From contig CAVYAN010000032.1 of NCBI GenBank assembly GCA_963766075.1, forward strand, positions 1-12,495: a DNA stretch of 12,495 nucleotides, written 5' to 3'. The translations under genes and the position numbers were made by a program. Under the pieces are notes generated by a model, which saw only the letters and a program-made list of their open reading frames with translations, did no database searches and was not told where the DNA came from. How positions within the stretch are numbered: position 1 is the stretch's first letter; every line of letters begins with the position of its first letter. Of this stretch, positions 1 through 12,495 are shown one piece after another. The DNA is from an uncultured cyanobacterium. GTDB taxonomy: Bacteria; Cyanobacteriota; Cyanobacteriia; Leptolyngbyales; Leptolyngbyaceae.

Positions 1-423
1 GCGCAGGAGATCCTGAATGCCCATAACGCGTACCGAGCCCAAGTCGGTGTACCGCCTCTCAGTTGGTCTGACACTCTGGCAAGTCATGCTCAAGAGTGGG
101 CAAACCACCTCAGTGCTAACAGATTATTCCAGCATAGTGGAGCACAGGGCGAAGGAGAAAACCTGTGGATGGGCACATCACACCGGTTTAGCTTTACCCA
201 AATGGTTGAGGGTTGGGGTAACGAAAAGCAGCATTTTGTCCGGGGAACGTTCCCAAATGTAAGCAATACGGGCAATTGGGCTGATGTCGGTCACTATACC
301 CAAATGGTTTGGCGGAATACTACGCAAGTCGGCTGTGCTTGTGTTGACGGTGGTGATGGGAATGCCAGACTCGTTTGCCGCTACAGTCCTCAAGGCAATT
401 TTATCGGTCAATCAGTTTTCTAA
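1..423 (+). CDS. CAP/SCP domain protein, PR-1/CRISP-like (5' end outside window)
   Basis: Frame 1 is open from base 1: AQEILNAHNAYRAQVGVPPLSWSDTLASHAQEWA...QHS...GENLW...GHYTQMVWRNTTQVGC...LVCRYSPQGNF, stop TAA 421-423. These are the canonical CAP/PR-1 motifs. The track ORF 169..423 is only the C-terminal part. Confidence 0.95.
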   Translation, partial: AQEILNAHNAYRAQVGVPPLSWSDTLASHAQEWANHLSANRLFQHSGAQGEGENLWMGTSHRFSFTQMVEGWGNEKQHFVRGTFPNVSNTGNWADVGHYTQMVWRNTTQVGCACVDGGDGNARLVCRYSPQGNFIGQSVF

Positions 424-433
424 CGGCTGTCTG

Positions 434-490
434 ATTGCGGTTAGGCTAAGCCGCTTCCATAGTGGGGCGGTTTAGCCTAACTCGTGCAAT
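434..490 (+). terminator. Intergenic stem-loop (terminator-like or mRNA stabilising/processing hairpin)
   Basis: GTTAGGCTAAGCCGC (440-454) pairs with GCGGTTTAGCCTAAC (467-481) with one G-U pair; outer ATTGC (434-438) pairs with GCAAT (486-490). No U-tract follows. Confidence 0.6.
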
Positions 491-510
491 ACATTAAGAG
501 GAAATAAATT

Positions 511-1290
511 ATGTCTACAACAGTTAAATTGGCACAAATCTATGCTGTGCAGTTGGGTGATTTTCTAGCAGCGATCGCACAGAAATTCTATGGCGATAGC
601 AGTGACGAATCATGGTGCAGAATTTACGAAGCCAACAAAGCGGTGATTGGGCCAGATCCCGCTAACCTTCAACCTGGAATGGTTCTGGTGATTCCCTCTA
701 GTGATTCAAATCCCACGACTAAAGGGGACTTTAGCGCCATGTTAAATGCTTTGGGTGCGTTTGAATCCGGGCTGGCAACTGGCAATCCTAACCAGTATCG
801 TGTGGAAAACACGCTGGGCTTTATGGGCAAATACCAGTTTGGCGAACCGCTGTTGATTGATCTGGGGTATTACCAGGCAGAGGTTTACTATATGCACGGT
901 GCCGATCGGAATAACTGGCAGGGAAATTGGACGGGTAAGCGCGGCATTGGGGGCAAGTCCAGTTTTCTCAATGCTCCGCAGGTTCAGGAAGCGGCTATTC
1001 GGGAAGCCTTTCACCTGAACTGGACGCGCATCAATGATGCTCTCGCGGCTTCCCATCAGTCTGTCAATGATTATCTGGGGCAGGTCATGACATTCGATGA
1101 CCACGGAATTGCCAAAACTGTGACGATGACGCTATCGGGTCTGCTGGCGGGTGCTCATCTGAGTGGACCCTATGGGGTGGCAAACTTGCTGTTGAAAGGG
1201 ACGGTTGCCCTTGATGAATTTCAAACTTCCATCTTGCGATATGTGGATGAGTACGGTGGTTATGCTGTAACACCCACAGACTTTGCCTAA
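511..1290 (+). CDS. LysM peptidoglycan-binding domain + lysozyme-like (muramidase/transglycosylase-fold) domain protein
   Basis: N-terminal YAVQLGDFLAAIAQKFYG...IYEANKAVIG.DP..LQPGMVLVIP is a LysM. The C-terminal domain has ALGAFESG (Glu85, 763-765) followed by NTLGFMGKYQF, the helix-ES / GxYQ pattern of lysozyme-like folds. AAGAGG RBS upstream; no signal peptide evident. Confidence 0.85.
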   Translation: MSTTVKLAQIYAVQLGDFLAAIAQKFYGDSSDESWCRIYEANKAVIGPDPANLQPGMVLVIPSSDSNPTTKGDFSAMLNALGAFESGLATGNPNQYRVENTLGFMGKYQFGEPLLIDLGYYQAEVYYMHGADRNNWQGNWTGKRGIGGKSSFLNAPQVQEAAIREAFHLNWTRINDALAASHQSVNDYLGQVMTFDDHGIAKTVTMTLSGLLAGAHLSGPYGVANLLLKGTVALDEFQTSILRYVDEYGGYAVTPTDFA

Positions 1291-1413
1291 TGCTTCTGAG
1301 TGGATTACAGCGCCTCAGGAATACTCTGGTAATGCGTTCAAGTTCACCCATAATCCACTAATCATGTCACACAATACATGGGTCATACAATCCATAATAC
1401 AAGGAGAATTTTC

Positions 1414-1698
1414 ATGACACAGTCCGCTTTTCCCAACCAGGATTCAAACCTTGCTGACATTCAGCAAGGGAGTTCTAAATCAAAATTGTTGGATACTAAA
1501 GTGATGCGAGCCCCGCTGGATGCTGAGGTGATTCGAGCTGTAACACCTTTATTTATTGCCGCGATCGGTGGCATTATCGGGATTACCGTTTTAGTCATGG
1601 GTGCTAGTGAGGCTGGGTTTGGATTGGCCAGTACTGCGATCGCCGGTGCCGCTGGTTTAGCACAACCCCATAAGGATCAGAATTCAAAGGATCCCTAA
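1414..1698 (+). CDS. Small hypothetical membrane protein (94 aa) with Gly/Ala-rich hydrophobic hairpin
   Basis: AAGGAG RBS at 1401-1406 favours ATG 1414 over 1378. Hydrophobic segment AVTPLFIAAIGGIIGITVLVMGASEAGFGLASTAIAGAAGLA between polar termini. Confidence 0.75.
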   Translation: MTQSAFPNQDSNLADIQQGSSKSKLLDTKVMRAPLDAEVIRAVTPLFIAAIGGIIGITVLVMGASEAGFGLASTAIAGAAGLAQPHKDQNSKDP

Positions 1699-1962
1699 TG
1701 GGCTCTAAGGCATCCGTTTTTGCGGGCATTGATTCTACTGCAAGCGGGGAAGCTGGCCCATGCATTCAAGCTTCACAATTTGACACAGTCGATGTTTAGC
1801 GAGATGAGTATGCTAAAAGTTAATCTGTGGACAGAGATACTGTCTTTCGCTCTAACGGCCTGTCATTCTCATCCTACTGTCTGTCACTCTACTGTGTAGC
1901 TCTGGAGTGTGCTGGATTTCATTGAATTTACCACACCAAAGGGATCGCGTCATTCTCAACAC

Positions 1963-1997
1963 CCGATCCCCAGACTCTTCAAGAATTTGGGGATCGG
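1963..1997. repeat. 35-bp near-perfect palindrome upstream of the CHAT gene
   Basis: CCGATCCCCAGACTCTT-C-AAGAATTTGGGGATCGG: arms complementary at 15/17 positions, outer 10 bp perfect. Confidence 0.8.
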
Positions 1998-2042
1998 AAT
2001 TGTCAATCGGATCGCTATCGCGTTCAACGTTAGGGGGGCATT

Positions 2043-3128
2043 GTGACACCGATCAAAATTTTAATTCTGGCGGCGAATCCCAAGGGAAGCGATCGCCTCA
2101 GGCTGGACGAAGAAGTCCGAGAAATTAAGGCGGCTTTGGAGCAGAGCCAACACCGGGATGAGTTTGCCGTTATCCAAGAATGGGCGGTGCGGGTGGATGA
2201 TTTGCAAAAGCTGTTGCACAATCATGCCCCTCAAGTTGTTCATTTTTCGGGGCATGGCACGGGAGCCGAGGGGCTGGTGCTGGAGAATGAACTGGGGCGG
2301 GAGCAACCGGTGAGCACCCAGGCGTTAGCTGGCTTGTTTAAGCTGTTTCCCACCGTGCGCTGTGTGTGTCTGAATGCCTGTTACTCGGAGGTGCAGGCCA
2401 AGGAGATTTGCCAATACATTGACTGTGTGGTGGGGATGAATCAGGCGATTGGGGATAAGGCCGCGATCCAGTTTGCCAAGGGCTTTTATCGAGCTTTGGG
2501 GGCGCAGCGATCGTTTCAGGATGCCTATGAATTGGGCAAGAATGCGATCGCCCTGCAAAATATCCCCGATGAGTTGATTCCGGTATTGAAACTGAAGCCG
2601 TCTATTCCGTCTACTGACCTAACGTTATTTCCTTTACCTTCTTCTATCTCTGCAAAAATTATGAATGAATCTTCATCTGCGGTTCCTCCCAGTGCTGCAT
2701 TCCCATCTTCGAGTCAGAATCGCTCTGTTTCTATTGGTGGCAATATGACGGGCAGTGTGATTCAAACGGGGGATAGCAATACGGCTTCGGTTCAGTTCCA
2801 TCAGGTCACCTTGCCACCGCCGGATAGCGTCAATATTCAAACCGAAATGACAGCATTGCGGGAGCTGCTAGCGCTGCTGGAAACCCCCGATCGCCGCAAG
2901 ATCGATAATGCCCTGGCGGAGGTGGAGGATGAACTCAAGAAACCAGAACCGGACAAGGCAGAGGTGGGGCAGGCGTTGGAACGGGCTTTCAATTATGCTC
3001 AGAAAGCTGAAGGGTTTTCGGCGGCGATTGAGAAGCTCCAACCCCGAGTTAGCAAGGTGGTTTCATGGTTGGGTGATAATTGGTACAAGATTCTCAGTGT
3101 GGTCAGGCTGGGTGTAATTGGAATGTAG
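2043..3128 (+). CDS. CHAT-domain (caspase-like, HetF family) protease + putative amyloid motif + C-terminal helical domain
   Basis: KILILAANPK...LRLDEEVREI...VVHFSGHG (His71, 2253-2255) and CVCLNACYS (Cys113, 2379-2381) give an intact CHAT catalytic dyad. A Ser/Pro-rich linker follows, then NRSVSIGGNMTGSVIQTGDSNT, then a helical domain ending WLGDNWYKILSVVRLG. GTG start with AGGGGG upstream. Confidence 0.92.
   Translation: MTPIKILILAANPKGSDRLRLDEEVREIKAALEQSQHRDEFAVIQEWAVRVDDLQKLLHNHAPQVVHFSGHGTGAEGLVLENELGREQPVSTQALAGLFKLFPTVRCVCLNACYSEVQAKEICQYIDCVVGMNQAIGDKAAIQFAKGFYRALGAQRSFQDAYELGKNAIALQNIPDELIPVLKLKPSIPSTDLTLFPLPSSISAKIMNESSSAVPPSAAFPSSSQNRSVSIGGNMTGSVIQTGDSNTASVQFHQVTLPPPDSVNIQTEMTALRELLALLETPDRRKIDNALAEVEDELKKPEPDKAEVGQALERAFNYAQKAEGFSAAIEKLQPRVSKVVSWLGDNWYKILSVVRLGVIGM
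2718..2783 (+). other. Putative amyloid/homotypic interaction motif, copy 1 (aa 226-247 of the CHAT protein)
   Basis: NRSVSIGGNMTGSVIQTGDSNT; 14/22 identical to the motif encoded at 12322-12387. Confidence 0.7.
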
Positions 3129-3589
3129 TCTGTATGAGTATAGGAATTCACTTCGTGCTGCTTGGATTTTTTGAATCGTCATTGTTGCGATTTTGAGTTG
3201 TAGTAATTTTGACAAGGAAAAGTTTGTTTGTTCAAAAGCATTCAAGATCAGACGATTCCGGATTAGAAATGAGGCAATTTAGATTGGATCGCCATAGCTG
3301 TAACAATATTTAATTATCTTTTTAGGGTTATCGCTTTACTATCCTTCTATTAGAGAGATCGCATCGTTTAACTCATCCCCCTCTGAGTCAGCCGGGTTCC
3401 TGGATTCTGAGGAAAATCCTGGGGAAGATAAGGTCGCATTCAGTCTTCGTTTTCTTTTACTGTGCGCTATTCCAATTCTTGAGTCGGCATCCTGCGCAGG
3501 GCAGGTTTTTCCCTGGGAAATTTCACGGCTATATTGAACTGTTGCCATGATTGAGTGAACAGTGTTTATTCTGCTCGTTCAATTTGTTT

Positions 3590-3646
3590 GGACTATGGAC
3601 GAGAGTGCAAAGAGTCCATAGTCCGCAATAGTGTACAGTCCGCAAT
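3590..3646. promoter_or_regulatory. Inverted plus direct repeat cluster upstream of tpsA (candidate operator)
   Basis: Perfect 11-bp inverted repeat GGACTATGGAC (3590-3600) / GTCCATAGTCC (3614-3624) with a 13-nt spacer, and direct repeat AGTCCGCAAT at 3620-3629 and 3637-3646. Confidence 0.55.
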
Positions 3647-3757
3647 GTTATTTGCAGGCGATCGCACAACGCCGCCAGAGACGATCAAGTGTCTATCTTA
3701 GTGCAAGCGTATTAACGCAGAGAACTATTGACAAGATTGCTAAGGGGTTGCATTGCC

Positions 3758-6700
3758 ATGAAGGATTTGTTTGAGATTCGTGTGGTTTGGGTTTTGAGGT
3801 TAGCGATCGCGCTTTTCACTGGCCTATTTGTCGGCGCTGATCGCACTTGGGCACAAGTGACGCCCGATCTCACGCTGGGATCGGAGGGTTCGGTGGTGAA
3901 TCCGAATCTGAATATTCGGGGGTTGCCGAGCGATCTGATTGAGGGGGAGCTAGACGGGGCGCGAATCTGTTCCATAGCTTTCTGGACTTTAATGTGGCGG
4001 CGGGGCGCGGGGTTTACTTCGGCAATCCGGCGGGGGTGGACAATATTTTGAGCCGGGTGACGGGCGGCAATCTGTCGAATATTGACGGCAGGCTGGGCGT
4101 GTTGGGCAGCGCGAATCTGTTTTTGCTGAACCCGAATGGGATTGTATTTGGGCCGAATGCCAGTTTGGATGTGGCGGGATCGTTTTTGGCGAGTACGGCG
4201 GCGGGTTTTCGGTTTGCGGATGGGACGACCTATAGTGCCACGAATCCGGATGCGTCCCCTTTGTTAACGGTGACTGCGCCGCTGGGGGTGCAGTTTGGGC
4301 GGGATCAAGCGGGGGCGATCGCCAATGCCGGAAACTTAACGACAGGCCAAAATCTAACGCTGATTGGGGGCACGGTGGTAAGTACCGGGCAATTGAATGC
4401 ACCGAGGGGAAATCTGGAGGTTGTGGCGGACGATGTGGCGGTGCGGCAGTTAACGGCGCAAATCGGCAACCTTAACCGCCAACCATAATCTAAATTTAGT
4501 GGAAAGTCAGTTACAAACCTCAGGCGATTTGACTTTGCGGGCGGGGGATACGGTGCGTGTGCGGGATAGCGTGGCTCTACCGTTCTCGGCTCAAGCCGGG
4601 GGAAATCTATCGATTCAAGGAAATCGCGGCATTGATATTCTGGCGCTGAATCACCTCTCTCAAACTCCCTTTGTCAGTGGTGGCAATCTAAGCCTAATCA
4701 GTGATGGCATTATTTCTGGAGATGCCCATTTTGCTAGCGGTGGTGGGTTTACGGTCCGCAGCCTATCGGGCCTGCCTGCCCAATTTACCAGCCTCTATGA
4801 TCCCATTATTAGTTCTGCTGGCGATATTGATGTTGTCGGCAACTATTTAGGTGTCGCACTGCTCGTGGAGTCCTTGGGAAATATTCGGTTTCAGGGAAAA
4901 CGTCACTATCAATGGACCTGATAGAACTTTTAGTCCCGCAAATCCCGACCCCGACTTAGCCCTGTTAGGAAATTTGCCGGCGCTAATTGTCCATGCAAAT
5001 CGCGATGGTCTGCGATATTCACATACACCTTTACCGACACTTTTCCTCCTAATCCCGAATACAGCGATCTTTCAAACTGGCAGTAATCTCCCCGTTGGAG
5101 TAACTATCCAAGGACTTGTGAAGACCCCTGCGCCTGCGGCAGGCGGCAATGCCGGAAATATTATCCTCAGCGGCAATGCCTTGAATATCCAAGGATCTCT
5201 GGATACTTCTGCGGCAGGCGGCAATGCCGGAAATATTATCATCAGCGGCAATGCCTTGAATCTGACTGGCAGGTTAAGTAGTGATACTTCTGGAGTCGGA
5301 GATGGTGGAGACATAACCATTACGGTTACTAATGCTGTCAATATTGACGGCGGTTCTATTAACAGCCAGGTGCTTCGAGCAGGAAGAGAAGTAAACGGAA
5401 CGGGAGGTAGTATTACAATCAACGCAGGATCACTGCACTTGTCCGAAGGCGCACAGATCAATGCTTTTGTAAATGGTGCTCCTCATCTTGATGGAAATGG
5501 TAACGTTATTCCTGAACCAGATCCAATTGGAGATGCTGGAAATATCACAATCGATGTTGGCAAGGGTGAGATCAGGATTGATGGCAGTGGTGAGGTAGTA
5601 GTTCCACTGGTATTTTCGACACTCTAGGAAATGGGCAAGACACTCCTAATGGTACTCAAAGATCCTCAAAAAAAGGGAAGGAGGCATTGGGGGAAACATT
5701 AAGATTACTCGGGGTCACTGGCAATCATTGGTTTTAATAATGATTTGGGTAACCAAGCCAGGATTCGGGCGATGCAGGTATAGCTGCTAAGACTTTTGGC
5801 GGAAAACCTCTGACGAAACTCAAGTAGGAAGGCTGGAAAAATTAATATAACTACTGATCTCTCTATCCATTACGGGTGGGGGTTTTCTGGATAATAGTAC
5901 CTTTGGTAAGGGCAATGCTGGAATGATCACTGTGAAAGCAAACTCAATTACTTTAACCGATGACAATAAAACTCGCCGCGCCATCCAAAGCACAGCCGGA
6001 ATAGGGGCAACAGGGAAGGCTGGCTATATCAGTCTCAACACTGATCAATTAAGTGTCACAAACGCAAACGTAACGGTGAGTGGTACAGGAAAAAATTCGG
6101 CCGGGGATGTGATCGTCATGCCCATTAATATAAATGCTTCACTTAATGTCTCACTCAATAATGGCGCGATTACAGCTAAGACTGATAGTCCTAGCAGACC
6201 AGGGAGCGAAATACCATTTCCTCCAGCACCTAAATTCACTCCGTTTAGATAACCAGAGTGAAATATCGACCTCAACCCAAACGGGTGCAAGGCGGTGGGC
6301 TGTTGGTAGGACCCACGAGGGTGGCACTGTAGAATTGAATGGGGCAGCAAAATTTCAGCAGAGGCATAGGAAAGGTGGTCAGTGCAGGAAGACTCGCAAT
6401 TGACGCGGAGCGTTGAAGGTTCAAGACGGCTCCCGTGTAACCGTCGGTAGTCTCGATGGCCCTGCAGGTAATCTAACTATTTTTGCCAATCAGTTCGTTC
6501 TAAAAAATCAAGGAACGCTTACTGCGAATACAGGAAAGCCCCCTGGAGGGGCGCGCGAGCGCAAATATTTTCTTGTTCGGCAAAGAGCCTGCTACTGACA
6601 GTTTCGACTCATTAAATAATGCAACCGATACTCTCGCTCCACTCGAGTCATTATTGGCGGCAGTCGATAATCCGCAGGCAGTCAACGATCAATTAGGCAA

Positions 6701-7379
6701 TGCAACTATTCCTTCAAGCAGTTTTCTGATTATGGAAAGCGGCAGCAAGATAACCGCCACGGCTGATCGTAATAGCAATGCCTCTGGAGGCAACATTTTC
6801 ATCAAGACCCAGGTGTTATTGGCCCCTAAAACTGAGAATAAAATTTCAGCCAACGCCGGGGCAGGCAAAGGTGGGAACATCTTTATCTTTGCGAAGCCCT
6901 TGGGAATTTACAATATCGAGTTTCGTTCCACCGGCACCACCACCCTGAATGACATCACCGCGACCTCACTGTCCGGGGCCAACGGCATTGTCAGCATTGC
7001 CATCCCCGACATCAATCCCTCGCGGGGCCTCAACCAACTGCCCACCGACATTGCCGACGCCTCCAAACGGATTAACCCGATTTGCCCGATCGCAGGTCAA
7101 CAGCGCGCCGCCAACCAATTTGTCGTCACAGGTCGCGGAGGCTTACCGGCAACCCCCGATACGGCCCTCAGCAGCAACGTTCTCGTTGGCGCATCACCCG
7201 CAGTCACGCTGCCCGATCGCTCCGCCCCGCCCTCTACCAGCCCAACCGCAACTTCATCCCACGTCGAGGCGCAGGGGTCGACGATCGGGGCAAACGGCGA
7301 ATTCATCCTCACCGCCCATCCAGACCAAGTGTCACCGCATTCATCCTGGCACCCATTCCAAAATTGCAACCCCCAGTAA
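3758..7379 (+). CDS. Filamentous haemagglutinin-family two-partner secretion exoprotein (TpsA), about 1200 aa, interrupted by multiple frameshifts as sequenced
   Basis: Signal peptide ending TWA-QVTPDLTLG. TPS domain (RGANLFHSFLDFNV, NPAGVDNILSRVTGGNLSNIDG, ANLFLLNPNGIVFGPNASLDV) is split over two frames. GxAGNIxI beta-helix repeats follow, then the cyanobacterial FHA C-terminus (NDITATS...PDINPSRGL..LP...C...FVVTGRGGLP). Joins track ORFs 3728, 3994, 4499, 4851, 5923, 6134, 6413 and 6573 through indels at ~3945, ~4461, ~4899, several in 5590-5875, ~6230, ~6300-6410 and ~6560. Confidence 0.9.
5134..5261 (+). repeat. Intragenic direct repeat, 2 x 53 bp with 75-bp period, in tpsA
   Basis: CTGCGGCAGGCGGCAATGCCGGAAATATTATC[C/A]TCAGCGGCAATGCCTTGAAT at 5134-5186 and 5209-5261, one mismatch; encodes AAGGNAGNII[L/I]SGNALN. 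Confidence 0.92.
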
Positions 7380-7409
7380 TCTCCCATCAACTTTTGGCCT
7401 TTTGATCTC

Positions 7410-9215
7410 ATGGCTCAGTTTCCCATCGCTCTACCCATCGCCGTTTTGTTCATCAGCTTGCCGGGGGCCGGAACCACACCAACGCTGGCCCAAATGCCAA
7501 CCGTAGCCCAACTTCCGGCACCTAGCTCGACCTCCCCGCCACCAGCGCGATCGCCATCGCCCCAAGACCTCATCCCCCGACCCAATCCACTCCCGCCACT
7601 CCCCGAAATTCCGCCGCTGACTGCCCCGCCCGCAGAGCTACTCCCCAACCCCCAACCCCAATCCCCCGAAACAGCACCGCCCAACCTGCCCATCAAGTTT
7701 CGGGTTACAGGATTCAAATTTGAAGGAGGCACCGTCTTCAAAGATCAAGAGTTGCTGAACGCGATCGCCACTGCTCTAAAACTCGACCCCGCCACCCTGC
7801 TACCCCGCGAATTCACCTTTGCTGAGCTGCTCGAAGCCCGCTCCGCCATCACCAAACTCTATATCGATAAGCACTACATCACCTCCGGCGCTTTGATTCC
7901 TGCCGAGCAAACCGTTCCGCCGGAAGGGGGAATCGTCCGGATCCAAATCGTGGAAGGCGGCTTAGAAGACATCAAAGTCATCGGCACCCGGCGGTTGCAG
8001 CCCGGTTATATCAGCAGCCGATTGGCGATCGCCACCCCCAAGCCCTTGAATCGCGATCGCCTCCTGGATGCCCTGCAACTGCTGTCTCAATCGGGCCTGA
8101 TTGATAAAATCTCGGCGGAGTTGGCGGCGGGTTCCGCCTTTGGCAGCAGCATCTTGGAAGTCACCCTCCGCGAGGCTTCGACCTTGCATGGGGAAATTAA
8201 TCTTGACAACAATCGCTCCCCCGCCGTCGGCAGTTTTCGGCGCGGCATCACCTTGCACGAAGACAACGTCACTGGTTTGGGCGATCAATTCAGCGTCGCC
8301 TATGCCAATACCGATGGCAGTAATGCGCTTAACTTCAGTTACACAATCCCCGTTAGTCCCCATAACACCACCCTGGAACTGAGTTACAGCACTACTTCCA
8401 GCAACATCATCGAAAACCCCTTCAACGCACTGGACATTACGTCTAAATCCCGCACCTATGAAGTCACGCTGCGCCATCCCCTCATTCGCTCCGTCAAGCA
8501 AGAACTCGGCGTCGGCCTCACCTTCGCCCGCGAAGAGACAGACACTGCCCTCGGCTTTGAAAATATCGGTCCCTTTCCCCTCTCCCCCGGAGCCGATGCC
8601 GATGGCCACACGCGCCTCTCCGTCCTCCGCCTGTTTCAGGACTATGTGCATCGCAACGAAAAAGCCGTCTTCGCCCTGCGCTCTGAATTCAGCCTGGGCC
8701 TGGACCTCCTAGATGCCACCCGCAACGAAATTCCACCGGATGGGCGGTTTTTTGCTTGGCGGGGACAGGCGCAATGGGTGCGGCTATTGGGGCCAAACCT
8801 ACCGCTGGTACTGCGCGGAAACATCCAGCTCGCCGATCGCCCCCTAGTGGCCCTAGAGCAATTTACCCTAGGCGGTCAATTTAGCGTCCGAGGCTATCGG
8901 CAGGATGCTCTGCTGGCAGACAATGGGGCCTTTGGCTCGGTGGAAGTGCGACTCCCCATCCTGCGCTTTCCCGAATCCAATACCCTGGTTCAATTGGTGC
9001 CCTTTGTGGATGTGGGCACAATTTGGAATAACTCAAAAGATGCCAAATTACCTACCGATACATTGGTTTCAACTGGGCTCGGGTTACGGGTCCAAGTCAG
9101 CGATCGCGTTGATTTCCGCTTTGATTGGGGCATTCCCCTGGTATCACTCAATTCGTCCAAAAAAACGCTGCAAGAACAAGGAATCTACCTGACTTTCCTA
9201 TGGAAACTTTTCTAA
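7410..9215 (+). CDS. ShlB/FhaC/HecB-family two-partner secretion outer-membrane transporter (TpsB)
   Basis: Signal-like N-terminus, Pro-rich linker, POTRA motifs (FKFEGGTVF, ITKLYIDKHYITSGALIP, VRIQIVEG), LDNNRSPAVGS, and the loop-6 VRGY motif (EQFTLGGQFSVRGYRQD). Ends in a beta-strand with terminal Phe. Intact 601-aa ORF. Confidence 0.95.
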   Translation: MAQFPIALPIAVLFISLPGAGTTPTLAQMPTVAQLPAPSSTSPPPARSPSPQDLIPRPNPLPPLPEIPPLTAPPAELLPNPQPQSPETAPPNLPIKFRVTGFKFEGGTVFKDQELLNAIATALKLDPATLLPREFTFAELLEARSAITKLYIDKHYITSGALIPAEQTVPPEGGIVRIQIVEGGLEDIKVIGTRRLQPGYISSRLAIATPKPLNRDRLLDALQLLSQSGLIDKISAELAAGSAFGSSILEVTLREASTLHGEINLDNNRSPAVGSFRRGITLHEDNVTGLGDQFSVAYANTDGSNALNFSYTIPVSPHNTTLELSYSTTSSNIIENPFNALDITSKSRTYEVTLRHPLIRSVKQELGVGLTFAREETDTALGFENIGPFPLSPGADADGHTRLSVLRLFQDYVHRNEKAVFALRSEFSLGLDLLDATRNEIPPDGRFFAWRGQAQWVRLLGPNLPLVLRGNIQLADRPLVALEQFTLGGQFSVRGYRQDALLADNGAFGSVEVRLPILRFPESNTLVQLVPFVDVGTIWNNSKDAKLPTDTLVSTGLGLRVQVSDRVDFRFDWGIPLVSLNSSKKTLQEQGIYLTFLWKLF

Positions 9216-12192
9216 ACCGGCTATTTCCCAGGATTACTGCTTTCCTGTCTCGGCGCAGACGACCAGCACCCCTGTGGCTCTGATGATCGCCGTGATTGCG
9301 TTTGTTAGCAGCGTAACTATTCATGCGATCGCTCCCGATCGCGCACTAACGGCAACGCCACCGTCAGCCGTACTGTCAGACTCATCATCAGACTCACCAG
9401 CAGCTTCAGGGATTTGTCTGAACCCGGCTACAACCGCCGCCGACCTTAGCCGGTTGGGCATGGAAAAGTATCAATCTGGCCAGTTTGGTGATGCCCGCGA
9501 TTGCTGGCGGCAGGCCCGTAAACAGCATCAGGGGACAGCGGAGATCGCCGACCAAATCAATCAAGCCCAGGCTGAACAGGCATTGGGGCTGTATCCCTTG
9601 GCCTGCAAAACGCTTTTGCCCCTCTACAGCCCCACGATTCTTGACTGCAAAGCTCTACCCCAAGCTGACAGTGCGAAAGATAATCGGGCGCGGGTGCAGT
9701 TCTTGGAGCAAGTTAAGGCCAATGCCAACACCCCCGACAAGATCGCGGGCTTACACAGTTTAGGCAACATTCTGCGTGGGGTTGGGAGCCTTAGAACTGT
9801 CTCAGACCGTGTTGTCGTTAGCCCAGATCCCGGAGAGTCCCGATCTACAGTTAGATTTGGGTAATACCTACCGAGCATTGAGCGATCGCGCCTGGGACTT
9901 ATATTGGCGATCGGGGGAAGCACCCGACTTGCAAGATGCCATCAAGAACGCCCGCGCTGCCCTGCAAAACTATACGACGGTAGCCTCGGCTGCGGGACAG
10001 TCGGTTGCGGGACGGTCGGTTGCTCCATTGGCCCCAGAGACCATCACCCTGGCCCAACAGCAAGCCGAATTGAACCAGTTGAGTTTGCTCCTAGCTCAGC
10101 AGCGGGAGTTGGATTGTCTGCAAGATTCGACTCACCAGGGTTGCCGGTTTGAAAAACAGCAGCAACGAATAAAAAATCAAAGCAAATTAGCAGGGCAACT
10201 CTGGTCCAGCGAGATCCAGAATCAGCTCAATCGGTTCCTCTCGGGGAGCGATCCATCGCATTCGTTGTCAGCCCTGCTGGCTCAAATCGAGCAACTGCCG
10301 GTGGATCACACCACCCTACAGTTACGCCTCAACTTAGCCCAAATCCTGATCGATCTCCCCACCTTCAAAAATCTGCCGAGTCGCCACAAGTTCTCAATGG
10401 CAGAGCACTCTGGAAATCCTGGCTAAAAGCCACCCTTAATCTGACTCAAAATGATAGTCGAGAACGCTCCTACGTCATGGGATATTTGGGTCAGTGGTAT
10501 CAGCATCAGCCTGTACCCGACTGGACAGCGGCGGAACTCTGGACACAGAAAGCGCTATTACTGGCACAAGCGATTCCAGCCGACGAGATTGCCTATCAGT
10601 GGCAGTGGCAGTTGGGGCAAATTTATCATACACAACCCCAGACGTCTAGTTCAAATCGAAATCCCAAACAAAAGCGCAATCAAAAGCCCAAACGGCGACC
10701 CCGGCAATGGCGATCGCCAGTTAGAAGCCCGCGAAGCTTACAACAGCGCCTTTGAAACCTTGCAATCACTGCGCGGAGAATTAGCCGCCAGTAACCCCGA
10801 TACACAGCTCTCCTTCCAGCAAAACATTGAGACCATCTATCGCGAATATATCGATCTGCTGCTGACAGACAACACCGAACCGAGCCAGCCTGACTTGAAG
10901 ATGGCCCGTGACGTAATTGCAGCACTCCAAGCCGTGGAAATTGAAAACTTCCTGCGGCAAGGCTGTCCCGAAAATAACCTGGCGGCCATTGATAAAATTA
11001 TTGATAGCCAAGCGGGTGAAAAGACAGCCGCTTTTTCGCCCATCGTTTTAGCCAGTGCCGATGGTAAAACGGTTAGAGTCGAAGTCATTCTCAAACTGCC
11101 GGATCCGACTCATACAACGCAAAACCCCGCCCTGAACCAGCAGAAACAGAATGCGGGCAAGCCTGAGAAAGCAACTAACCCGGCTGCATCAGCTGCCGGA
11201 TCCTTAAAGCACTACCGCACCGTGATTGATCGCCAAGAGTTCACCAGCACCATTCGTGACCTCCAGTACGATCTCGAAGAAGAATATACGTTTCGCAGCG
11301 TCAAACAGAAAGCCCACAAGGTGTATCAATGGCTACTGGCCGAAGCCGAGCAACGCGGTGATCTCAACGGCATTGATACGCTGGTCTTTGCGTTGGATAC
11401 CCGCTTGCGGAACATCCCGTTGGCGGCCTTAGTGTACGACCCCACGCTGGATACGCCCGATCGCCAAGGCTACTTGATTGAGAAATATGCCGTGGCGATC
11501 GCACCCCGATTAAAACTCCAAGATGCCGAGCGGTTTCCGGCGAAAGCACTCAAGGTGCTGGCAGTTGGGCTGAGTGAAAAGCCCAAGGTGAAATTTCAGG
11601 GTCGGTTAGCGAACCGATCCTTTCCGGCGCTGCCCTATGTCAAACAGGAATTGCAGATCCTGGAGTCGATGGATCACAAGAAACTCGCCGTCTCCTCCCT
11701 TTTAGATCCGCAGTTCACCGCTAGGGGTTCCAACAAGCACTCAACACCACGACGATCGACATCCTGCACCTGGCCACCCACGGTGAATTCAGCTCCAGAC
11801 CCGAAGGCACATTTATTTTGTCTGCGGATGAGCAGGTGATGAATGTGACGGAGCTGGAACAGATTTTTCGCGATCGCAACCCCAAGCAGGCCAATACGAT
11901 TGGCTTACTGATTTTAAGCGCCTGTGAAACGGCAACGGGCGATCAACGCGCCACCCTGGGGATTTCGGGGGTGGCGGTCAGGGCGGGGGCAAGAGCCGCG
12001 ATCGCCTCCCTCTGGACACTAGATGATGAAGTGAGTGTGACCTTTATCGAAAAACTGTACGAACAACTGACGGATCCGGCCCTCACCAAGGTGCGGGCGT
12101 TGAGAGCCGCCCAACTGGCCCTGGCAAAGGAGGAGGGCTATGAACATCCGCGCTACTGGGCACCGTATATCTTTGTTGGCAATTGGTTGTGA
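9200..12192 (+). CDS. Signal-peptide/TPR-like + CHAT domain protease, interrupted by frameshifts as sequenced
   Basis: Probable start ATG 9200 overlapping the tpsB end (METFLNRLFPRITAFLSRRRRPAP then VALMIAVIAF, needs +1 at ~9270; GTG 9274 is the alternative). TPR-like segments NQAQAEQALG, LHSLGNILRG, LDLGNTYRAL, SYVMGYLGQWY, IAYQWQWQLGQI. CHAT domain with LRNIPLAAL, HLATHG (11767-11784), LILSACETATGD (Cys 11923-11925), ASLW and HPRYWAPYIFVGNWL. Indels at ~9780, ~10375, ~10425, ~10680, ~11725. Confidence 0.9.
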
Positions 12193-12234
12193 TATCCCCA
12201 ATGAAACCTTTCCTATTGAACAGGACTTAAGCGC

Positions 12235-12495
12235 GTGGCAAGTAATGTTGATCAGTTAAAAGAAATAATTGGCAGCAAGTTGTCAGATGAAGAGCTTCAC
12301 AAATTCATCGGCTTGCTCAGTAATCGCTCTGTTGAGGTTCAAGGCAATGCCACAGGAGCCGCAATCATCACGGGGGATAATAACACCACCAACACGACGT
12401 TCAATACGTTCAATATCACTCAAAGCACCAATCGCAGCGAATTACTAGAGCTGCTTGATCAACTCGAAAAACAGCAACAGCTTCCTGTACGGTGC
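12235..12495 (+). CDS. 5' part of an ORF running off the window: short helical N-terminus + putative amyloid motif
   Basis: GTG 12235 with AGGA at 12222-12225, open to the window end: MASNVDQLKEIIGSKLSDEELHKFIGLLSNRSVEVQGNATGAAIITGDNNTTNTTFNTFNITQSTNRSELLELLDQLEKQQQLPVRC. Absent from the ORF track because it has no stop in the window. Confidence 0.75.
   Translation, partial: MASNVDQLKEIIGSKLSDEELHKFIGLLSNRSVEVQGNATGAAIITGDNNTTNTTFNTFNITQSTNRSELLELLDQLEKQQQLPVRC
12322..12387 (+). other. Putative amyloid/homotypic interaction motif, copy 2 (aa 30-51 of the last ORF)
   Basis: NRSVEVQGNATGAAIITGDNNT, matching 2718-2783. Confidence 0.7.

Follow-up and report, generated by a model that had tools for sequence, protein, structure and literature searches.

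Does a cyanobacterial membrane receptor switch on a separate, caspase-like protease through an amyloid motif that the two proteins share? The question is raised by a 12,495-nucleotide contig from an uncultured member of the Leptolyngbyaceae (CAVYAN010000032.1 of assembly GCA_963766075.1), which we call the window. It is the whole of contig C32 of the source genome, labelled G000 (assembly of 5.05 Mb, 85% complete). One of its genes encodes a CHAT protease, its last open reading frame (ORF) is cut by the contig end, and both carry a similar 22-residue motif. A preliminary description of this DNA took the last ORF for an NLR/STAND sensor that templates polymerization of the CHAT protein. In this report, we found that the last ORF is, by its inferred topology, a CHASE2 membrane receptor. 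We tentatively propose, giving the idea slightly less than an even chance, that the two genes form a split receptor-protease, that is, an NLR-free, membrane-receptor variant of bacterial amyloid signalling. The features that bear on this proposal are as follows.

2043..3128, + strand: effector of 361 residues, comprising a minimal CHAT (caspase-fold) protease, a disordered linker, a BASS6-type motif and a C-terminal five-helix domain (PF12770, E 1.3e-11; fold match; structure models)
2253..2255, + strand: catalytic His71, invariant in 73/73 aligned homologues
2379..2381, + strand: catalytic Cys113, likewise invariant in 73/73 aligned homologues
2718..2783, + strand: effector-side motif, residues 226-247 (translation, position-specific scoring matrix (PSSM), motif profile; predicted local distance difference test (pLDDT) <50 in monomer models)
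2817..3125, + strand: helical-bundle domain with no Pfam family (structure models; homologue alignment)
12235..12495, + strand: N-terminal 87 residues of the CHASE2 receptor, arranged helix-helix, motif, strand, helix (homologues; continuation on contig C44)
12322..12387, + strand: receptor-side motif, residues 30-51 (translation, PSSM, motif profile)

Translation confirms the two 22-mers, which align without gaps at 14/22 residues and 41/66 bases and start 9,604 bases apart. A PSSM made from the two motifs, run against 99,988 six-frame ORFs of G000, scored both copies at 91.5 and the next best sequence at 40.5. Likewise, a profile derived from 162 copies of the motif in other genomes found just two matches in G000 (E 4e-11 and 1.1e-9; next 0.39). 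Thus, the motif is not scattered among many unrelated proteins of this genome; these are its only two copies in the assembly. By eye, the CHAT motif agrees with sequence C09_s051 of the published class set at 16/22 positions (PMC8086366 supplement), and the accompanying README maps class C09 to BASS6. The suggestion that this is an amyloid-signalling motif of the BASS type is thereby borne out, with BASS6 as its class. The DNA blocks that had been reported as shared between the two motifs are real, but they are weak evidence: the same codon is used at 9/14 identical residues where 5.15 would be expected (p about 0.03), no such excess is present in the other two cluster pairs (3/9 and 5/12), and the best local DNA match between the 300-base surroundings of the two motifs spans 17 columns. 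Gene conversion between the motifs was not accepted on a p of about 0.03 in a single pair.

The effector has no signal or transmembrane (TM) segment. Its match to PF12770 (44.9 bits, cut-off 24), together with the His71/Cys113 dyad and the caspase fold, places it among the CHAT peptidases. The best solved fold match of the protease part is SAVED-CHAT 8tl0 (E 1.4e-11), in which the CHAT domain is activated via filament formation (10.1101/2023.06.23.546230). The window's CHAT begins at the first strand of the caspase fold, with no EACC2 domain ahead of it. The motif follows within the disordered linker, and behind it lies a confidently modelled helical domain of about 110 residues, which the preliminary description did not mention; the motif is thus internal rather than C-terminal. 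Five helices are predicted in this tail. Its best fold match is a designed bundle (Z 8.8, root-mean-square deviation 2.9, 94 residues aligned), within the range of common bundles, and fold searches returned generic bundles and no named family. An Atlas search gave unnamed clusters, plus TCAD2 and DUF4404 at 0.90, as leads only. NCBIfam and PADLOC added nothing except a 'chat' model, and a promoter scan of positions 1690-3800 gave 0 sites, with 2 terminator-like sites at shuffle level.

What, then, is the last ORF? Its remainder lies on contig C44 of the same genome and is followed there by a DUF928 gene. The only longer homologue of the 87 residues is a CHASE2 protein (P0118, 61% identical over the whole query), and at the same cluster position a related genome, G012, encodes a CHASE2 protein of 586 residues, the first 90 of which align with the last ORF. 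The rest of the gene starts at the very end of C44, resuming in CHASE2 at the next residues; the ends of C32 and C44 do not overlap, two bases are unaccounted for, and the junction is not assembled. Both C44 pieces match PF05226, for which full-length homologues score 125-144 bits. In the homologues, the module is directly followed by a TM helix, further TM helices come after CHASE2, and enzyme domains are absent (TM segments were seen in three homologues). Because the homologues show this enzyme-free arrangement with CHASE2 between TM helices, and because C44 continues in CHASE2, the last ORF appears to be a membrane receptor whose motif module is its only sizeable cytoplasmic part. It is therefore the likelier sensor of the pair, as had been proposed, but not of the proposed kind: NACHT or NB-ARC and WD40 or TPR domains were not found in the continuation of this gene. 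An NLR that templates the CHAT protein, as in an inflammasome-like pair, is accordingly scarcely credible. Homologues of the module mostly precede NACHT, nSTAND1 and similar cores, and two nSTAND1-WD40 genes do lie further along C44; however, those genes start with other domains and carry no motif, and both the best full-length homologue and the continuation on C44 are of the CHASE2 type.

The effector family was followed in other genomes through its motif and helical domain. This search returned 117 proteins, of which all the named ones are cyanobacterial, and the combination is present in 18/401 genomes of the class. Among the 16 of these other than G000 and G012, nine have the effector directly before an nSTAND1 gene with an N-terminal copy of the motif; one has a broken effector before such a gene, one a truncated nSTAND1, and five have other contexts. 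The nine cases indicate that the motif links receptor to effector and that an NLR-like nSTAND1 is the usual partner of this family. The helical domain and motif often occur without CHAT, as stand-alone proteins of 140-170 residues beside nSTAND1 genes. At eight loci (L015:2463-2981, L016:9954-10379, L030, L032, L033, L037, L041 and L043), such a protein, with an N-terminal BASS6-type motif, lies directly before nSTAND1; this inverted Bell-like layout makes it a candidate new effector. The motif, alone or with the helical domain, was also seen fused or next to pentapeptide-repeat membrane proteins (L036, L039, L040 and L161:6940-9201).

These stand-alone proteins raise the possibility that amyloid coupling in the window is real and that its output is the helical domain, acting as an inverted Bell/HeLo-like membrane effector, with CHAT optional. 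Consistent with this idea, TIR replaces or joins CHAT in 3/93 aligned rows, and a W-L-G near the C-terminus is invariant. On the other hand, the catalytic dyad is invariant in 73/73 aligned homologues, and no helix of TM strength was found in the tail. We regard this alternative as quite improbable.

CHASE2 receptors themselves supply a second line of evidence. A related CHASE2 is held by 259/401 genomes, and effectors are commonly fused to it: among the 30 loci returned for one such receptor (P0176), 24 have an N-terminal CHAT fusion, 3 a kinase and 3 a cyclase, and three of the four other CHASE2 matches of the module profile search are trypsin fusions. Fusions to caspase, TIR and nSTAND1 were seen as well, and a caspase-CHASE2 all-in-one fusion was described by Kaur et al. 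2021 (PMC8195603). Judging from these architectures, DUF928-linked CHASE2 receptors hold their effector in the same N-terminal slot that the motif fills in the window. A motif in place of a fused protease corresponds to the split-versus-all-in-one pattern of amyloid signalling.

Motif-matched CHASE2 pairs recur with other motifs. In G169, from another family (L109:12113-18120 and L110:5516-8680, on G169:C32), EAD10-TM-CHASE2, DUF928 and TPR-CHAT genes are followed by two CHATs with an N-terminal motif. The CHAT motif agrees with the beta part of the receptor's EAD10 at 14/20 positions, against 5/20 across classes, which suggests that the beta segment of EAD10 is in itself a motif of amyloid type. 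In the second of these CHATs, which lies before an EAD10-NB-ARC-TPR gene, the catalytic stretch is altered. G050, from a third family, has EAD10-TM-CHASE2, DUF928 and TPR-CHAT (L180:1096-7311, on G050:C137). In G060 (L121:6219-10974) and G304 (L181:6404-11010), a CHAT-motif-helical gene directly precedes a motif-nSTAND1-TM-CHASE2 gene (motif identity 11/20 and 8/20); by their domains, these receptors appear to be NLRs that use a membrane CHASE2 domain as sensor. In the G060 receptor, a trypsin-like segment was seen by eye between nSTAND1 and TM-CHASE2. Motif identity between receptor and effector is 14, 9 and 12 of 22 in the three CHASE2 pairs and 5-12 of 22 in 16 nSTAND1 pairs; the former are no lower than the latter. 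A link between receptor and protease is thus likely, because the effector occupies the same CHASE2 slot in the fusions, because class matching repeats with other motifs in G169, G060 and G304, and because the CHASE2-pair identities hold up against those of nSTAND1 pairs.

The nature of the link is a separate matter. The receptor module resembles EAD10 (PF19954) in layout, and it misses the Pfam cut-off: neither the last ORF nor four full-length homologues match, sub-cut-off N-terminal matches occur in 4/29 module homologues, and profile-profile comparison gives a probability of 19% (E 0.0012). An Atlas search with the module gave nothing usable. Caspase-C14 proteins ending in tandem BASS6-type then EAD10-type motifs, in iSTAND-MoxR-vWA or NACHT loci (L011:13374-14471, L013:12398-13441, L085 and L102), could bridge the two motif classes. 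EADs have been proposed as homotypic adaptors (PMC7159879), and the two proteins might accordingly be coupled through a small folded adaptor in a finite complex rather than through an amyloid filament. The helix-helix-beta-helix order of the module fits such a model, and Pfam identifies genuine EAD10 in the receptors of G169 (49.5 bits) and G050 (92.1 bits). The effector, however, contributes just the 22-residue beta motif, with no helices and disordered in monomer models, and that motif matches BASS6. A folded adaptor is therefore improbable in our estimation, and amyloid templating is the form of coupling that we carry forward. A complex prediction with three CHAT motif segments and the 87-residue module scored 0.02 and was weighed neither way.

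The two motif genes stand at either side of an envelope-related set of genes, for which the following features were assigned.

3758..7379, + strand: two-partner secretion (TPS; filamentous haemagglutinin-type) exoprotein gene, in several frames as assembled (domain matches, relatives)
7410..9215, + strand: ShlB/FhaC outer-membrane transporter, intact (domain match)
9274..12192, + strand: large TPR-CHAT protein with a hydrophobic N-terminus and without the motif, in several frames as assembled (domain matches, motif profile)

The order CHAT-motif, TPS, ShlB, TPR-CHAT, motif-CHASE2, DUF928 occurs in full in the window taken together with C44, in G012 and at metagenome locus L046, and locus L018 holds the first half up to its contig end. 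A first metagenome scan found nothing; a second found two loci, one of them a duplicate of G012:C44. Duplicates were counted once (L017 and L047 of G012:C44, L019 of G011:C36). The motif pair recurs in relatives, namely in the G012 and L046 clusters. TPR-CHAT and DUF928 both have hydrophobic N-termini and are probably exported, which would leave the small CHAT as the sole cytoplasmic protease of the cluster. As assembled, the TPS, TPR-CHAT, CHASE2 and DUF928 genes contain many single-base frameshifts. Split genes make up 3/4 in the cluster versus 1/10 outside it, the coding density of the genome is normal (84%), and TPS, ShlB and TPR-CHAT are likewise interrupted in L046. Because several breaks are one missing base in a homopolymer, sequencing error is the likely cause, with gene decay as the alternative. 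Upstream of the cluster, window positions 1-1698 hold a cut CAP-domain gene, a LysM protein and a small hydrophobic ORF, which are not conserved upstream in G012 or L018. Just upstream of the G012 cluster, a CHAT gene and an nSTAND1 gene form a second pair, whose motif is different and rich in N/Q/G (L010:8440-11941, on G012:C44); a similar motif stands ahead of a trypsin-CHASE2 in P0173.

An important question to resolve is whether the two motif genes are coupled at all. The CHAT gene could derive from a pair of CHAT and nSTAND1 genes, and a caspase/EAD10-like locus could have supplied the receptor module; the two would then have ended up in a hotspot of conflict genes, each with a partner elsewhere or with none. 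We consider this unlikely, though it is the rival that most deserves weighing. Several observations tell against coupling. The apparent origins of the two motif copies differ. The module, about 85 residues long, is mobile (29/37 profile-search matches, from which P0164 and P0167 were dropped as spurious, lie at the N-terminus of NACHT, nSTAND1, VMAP, FGS-type, TPR, HEAT or unassigned proteins), and its closest relatives are found after caspase-C14 genes rather than CHAT genes: at six loci (L011, L083, L084, L085, L094 and L102), module genes follow a caspase (PF00656) ending in the same motif. The fused CHATs of CHASE2 receptors look EACC2-type by eye, without a tree, rather than of this CHAT subfamily. 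Partner-specific covariation was sought and is absent, the cognate effector ranking 8, 7 and 3 of 19 for the three CHASE2 motifs (8 for the window); it is likewise absent in nSTAND1 pairs. Further, the motif of the last ORF is matched more closely by 23/117 CHAT homologues than by its own neighbour. The 14/22 match is real, but it was overstated as specific to the pair, since it reflects the family consensus, and the correspondence between the two genes appears to be at the level of motif class only. The motif genes are 9.1 kb apart with three genes between them (and about 630 bases between CHAT and TPS), unlike adjacent BASS pairs. The receptor is found in 2/90 genomes of the family, its own included, and the three full clusters are relatives, not independent. 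Since the assembly is 85% complete, it may lack a STAND that bears the motif. Six additional motif proteins, including a caspase and NACHTs, are encoded on other contigs of G012, besides the second CHAT/nSTAND1 pair of that genome; an EAD10-NB-ARC near the CHATs of G169 shares their motif; and no motif-CHAT lies on the 9.7-kb contig of G050. Against mere co-location, all three clusters keep both motifs while their proteins are only about 60-70% identical, G000 has no third copy, and class matching recurs with another motif in G169. On balance, we continue to favour coupling.

From the domains, the motif class, its uniqueness in the assembly, the gene order and the fusion equivalents, we infer the following course of events for a split receptor-protease. 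The receptor would sit in the inner membrane, with a cytoplasmic BASS6-type module of ~90 residues, one TM helix, an extracytoplasmic CHASE2 domain and further TM helices. CHASE2 would be engaged, probably by something tied to the co-encoded TPS/ShlB/TPR-CHAT/DUF928 envelope module. Engaged receptors may then cluster, so that their motifs form a cross-beta seed, and, on the BASS precedent, this seed would template the matching motif of the cytoplasmic CHAT protein. Stacking of CHAT under the membrane could switch the protease on, free the helical tail domain, or both. The motif would thereby substitute for the covalent link of the common protease-TM-CHASE2 fusions, with defence or cell death as the probable response. 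A broader form of this proposal, which we hold to be somewhat doubtful, is that CHASE2 receptors of TPS/CHAT/DUF928 clusters have more than once traded a fused protease for an amyloid motif (of the BASS6 type in the window and of the EAD10 type in G169 and G050) and would nucleate a cytoplasmic filament of caspase-like protease from the cell surface, as a counterpart of animal receptor-RHIM-caspase pathways. If so, the beta part of EAD10 is an amyloid motif.

To date, the literature consulted connects amyloid signalling in bacteria with cytoplasmic sensors. If our proposal is true, a TM receptor with the motif as its sole cytoplasmic output extends such signalling to extracellular signals. It also gives a handle on the common, unexplained cyanobacterial TPS-ShlB-TPR/CHAT-CHASE2-DUF928 clusters and joins two separately described vocabularies, BASS motifs and EAD10. 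A literature search returned no report joining CHASE2 to an amyloid motif; most subscription journals, and Fig. S5 and Table S2 of the BASS preprint, were outside its scope. In PMC8195603, amyloid occurs in a reference title, and EAD10 with CHASE2 does not occur in the 11 of its 13 supplements that were covered; CHASE2 is also absent from two supplementary files of PMC7159879.

Several known systems are close to the one proposed here. One likeness is to an animal receptor. PGRP-LC of Drosophila is a transmembrane protein, and the caspase DREDD acts downstream of it. Signalling from this receptor by an amyloid motif, the PGRP-LC/Imd cRHIM (PMC13506858), serves here as an analogy only. The EACC2-caspase-TM-CHASE2 and nSTAND1-TM-CHASE2 fusions (PMC8195603) are alike in having a CHASE2 receptor with a cytoplasmic caspase-fold output, but in the window the protease is a separate gene and the receptor has the motif module only; no EACC2, TRADD-N or DUF1822 partner was seen in the window. 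EAD10 (Kaur et al. 2020, PMC7159879; PF19954) is likewise a small alpha+beta module N-terminal to conflict-system cores, with a second copy on the effector, whereas the window's module misses the Pfam model and has a BASS6-type beta motif, and its effector holds the motif only. In the Bab/Agp BASS11 antiphage system, where templating was shown in phage defence (10.1101/2024.11.07.622273), a non-NLR sensor also templates its effector via a BASS motif; however, Agp is a cytoplasmic TPR-GreA/B-PIN protein adjoining a Bell-like effector, and the motif class is another. A further comparison is with the BASS6/NLR pairs of Dyrka et al. (10.1101/2020.01.06.895854; PMC8086366), which are adjacent effector and NLR genes, with CHAT already listed as an alternative effector. 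The motif class, its length and its G/N/S/T/V/I make-up are the same, the host is likewise cyanobacterial, and the motif is common to the N-terminus of the sensor and the effector. The differences are that the sensor there is a NACHT/NB-ARC (STAND) protein and here a TM-CHASE2 receptor, that the genes here are 9 kb apart, beyond the 5 kb of the defining screen, and that the motif there is C-terminal to a Bell or enzyme domain and here precedes a helical domain. Thus, the window pair appears to work like BASS signalling, yet, because sensor type, adjacency and motif position all depart from the pattern, it is not to be counted among the BASS NLR/effector pairs.

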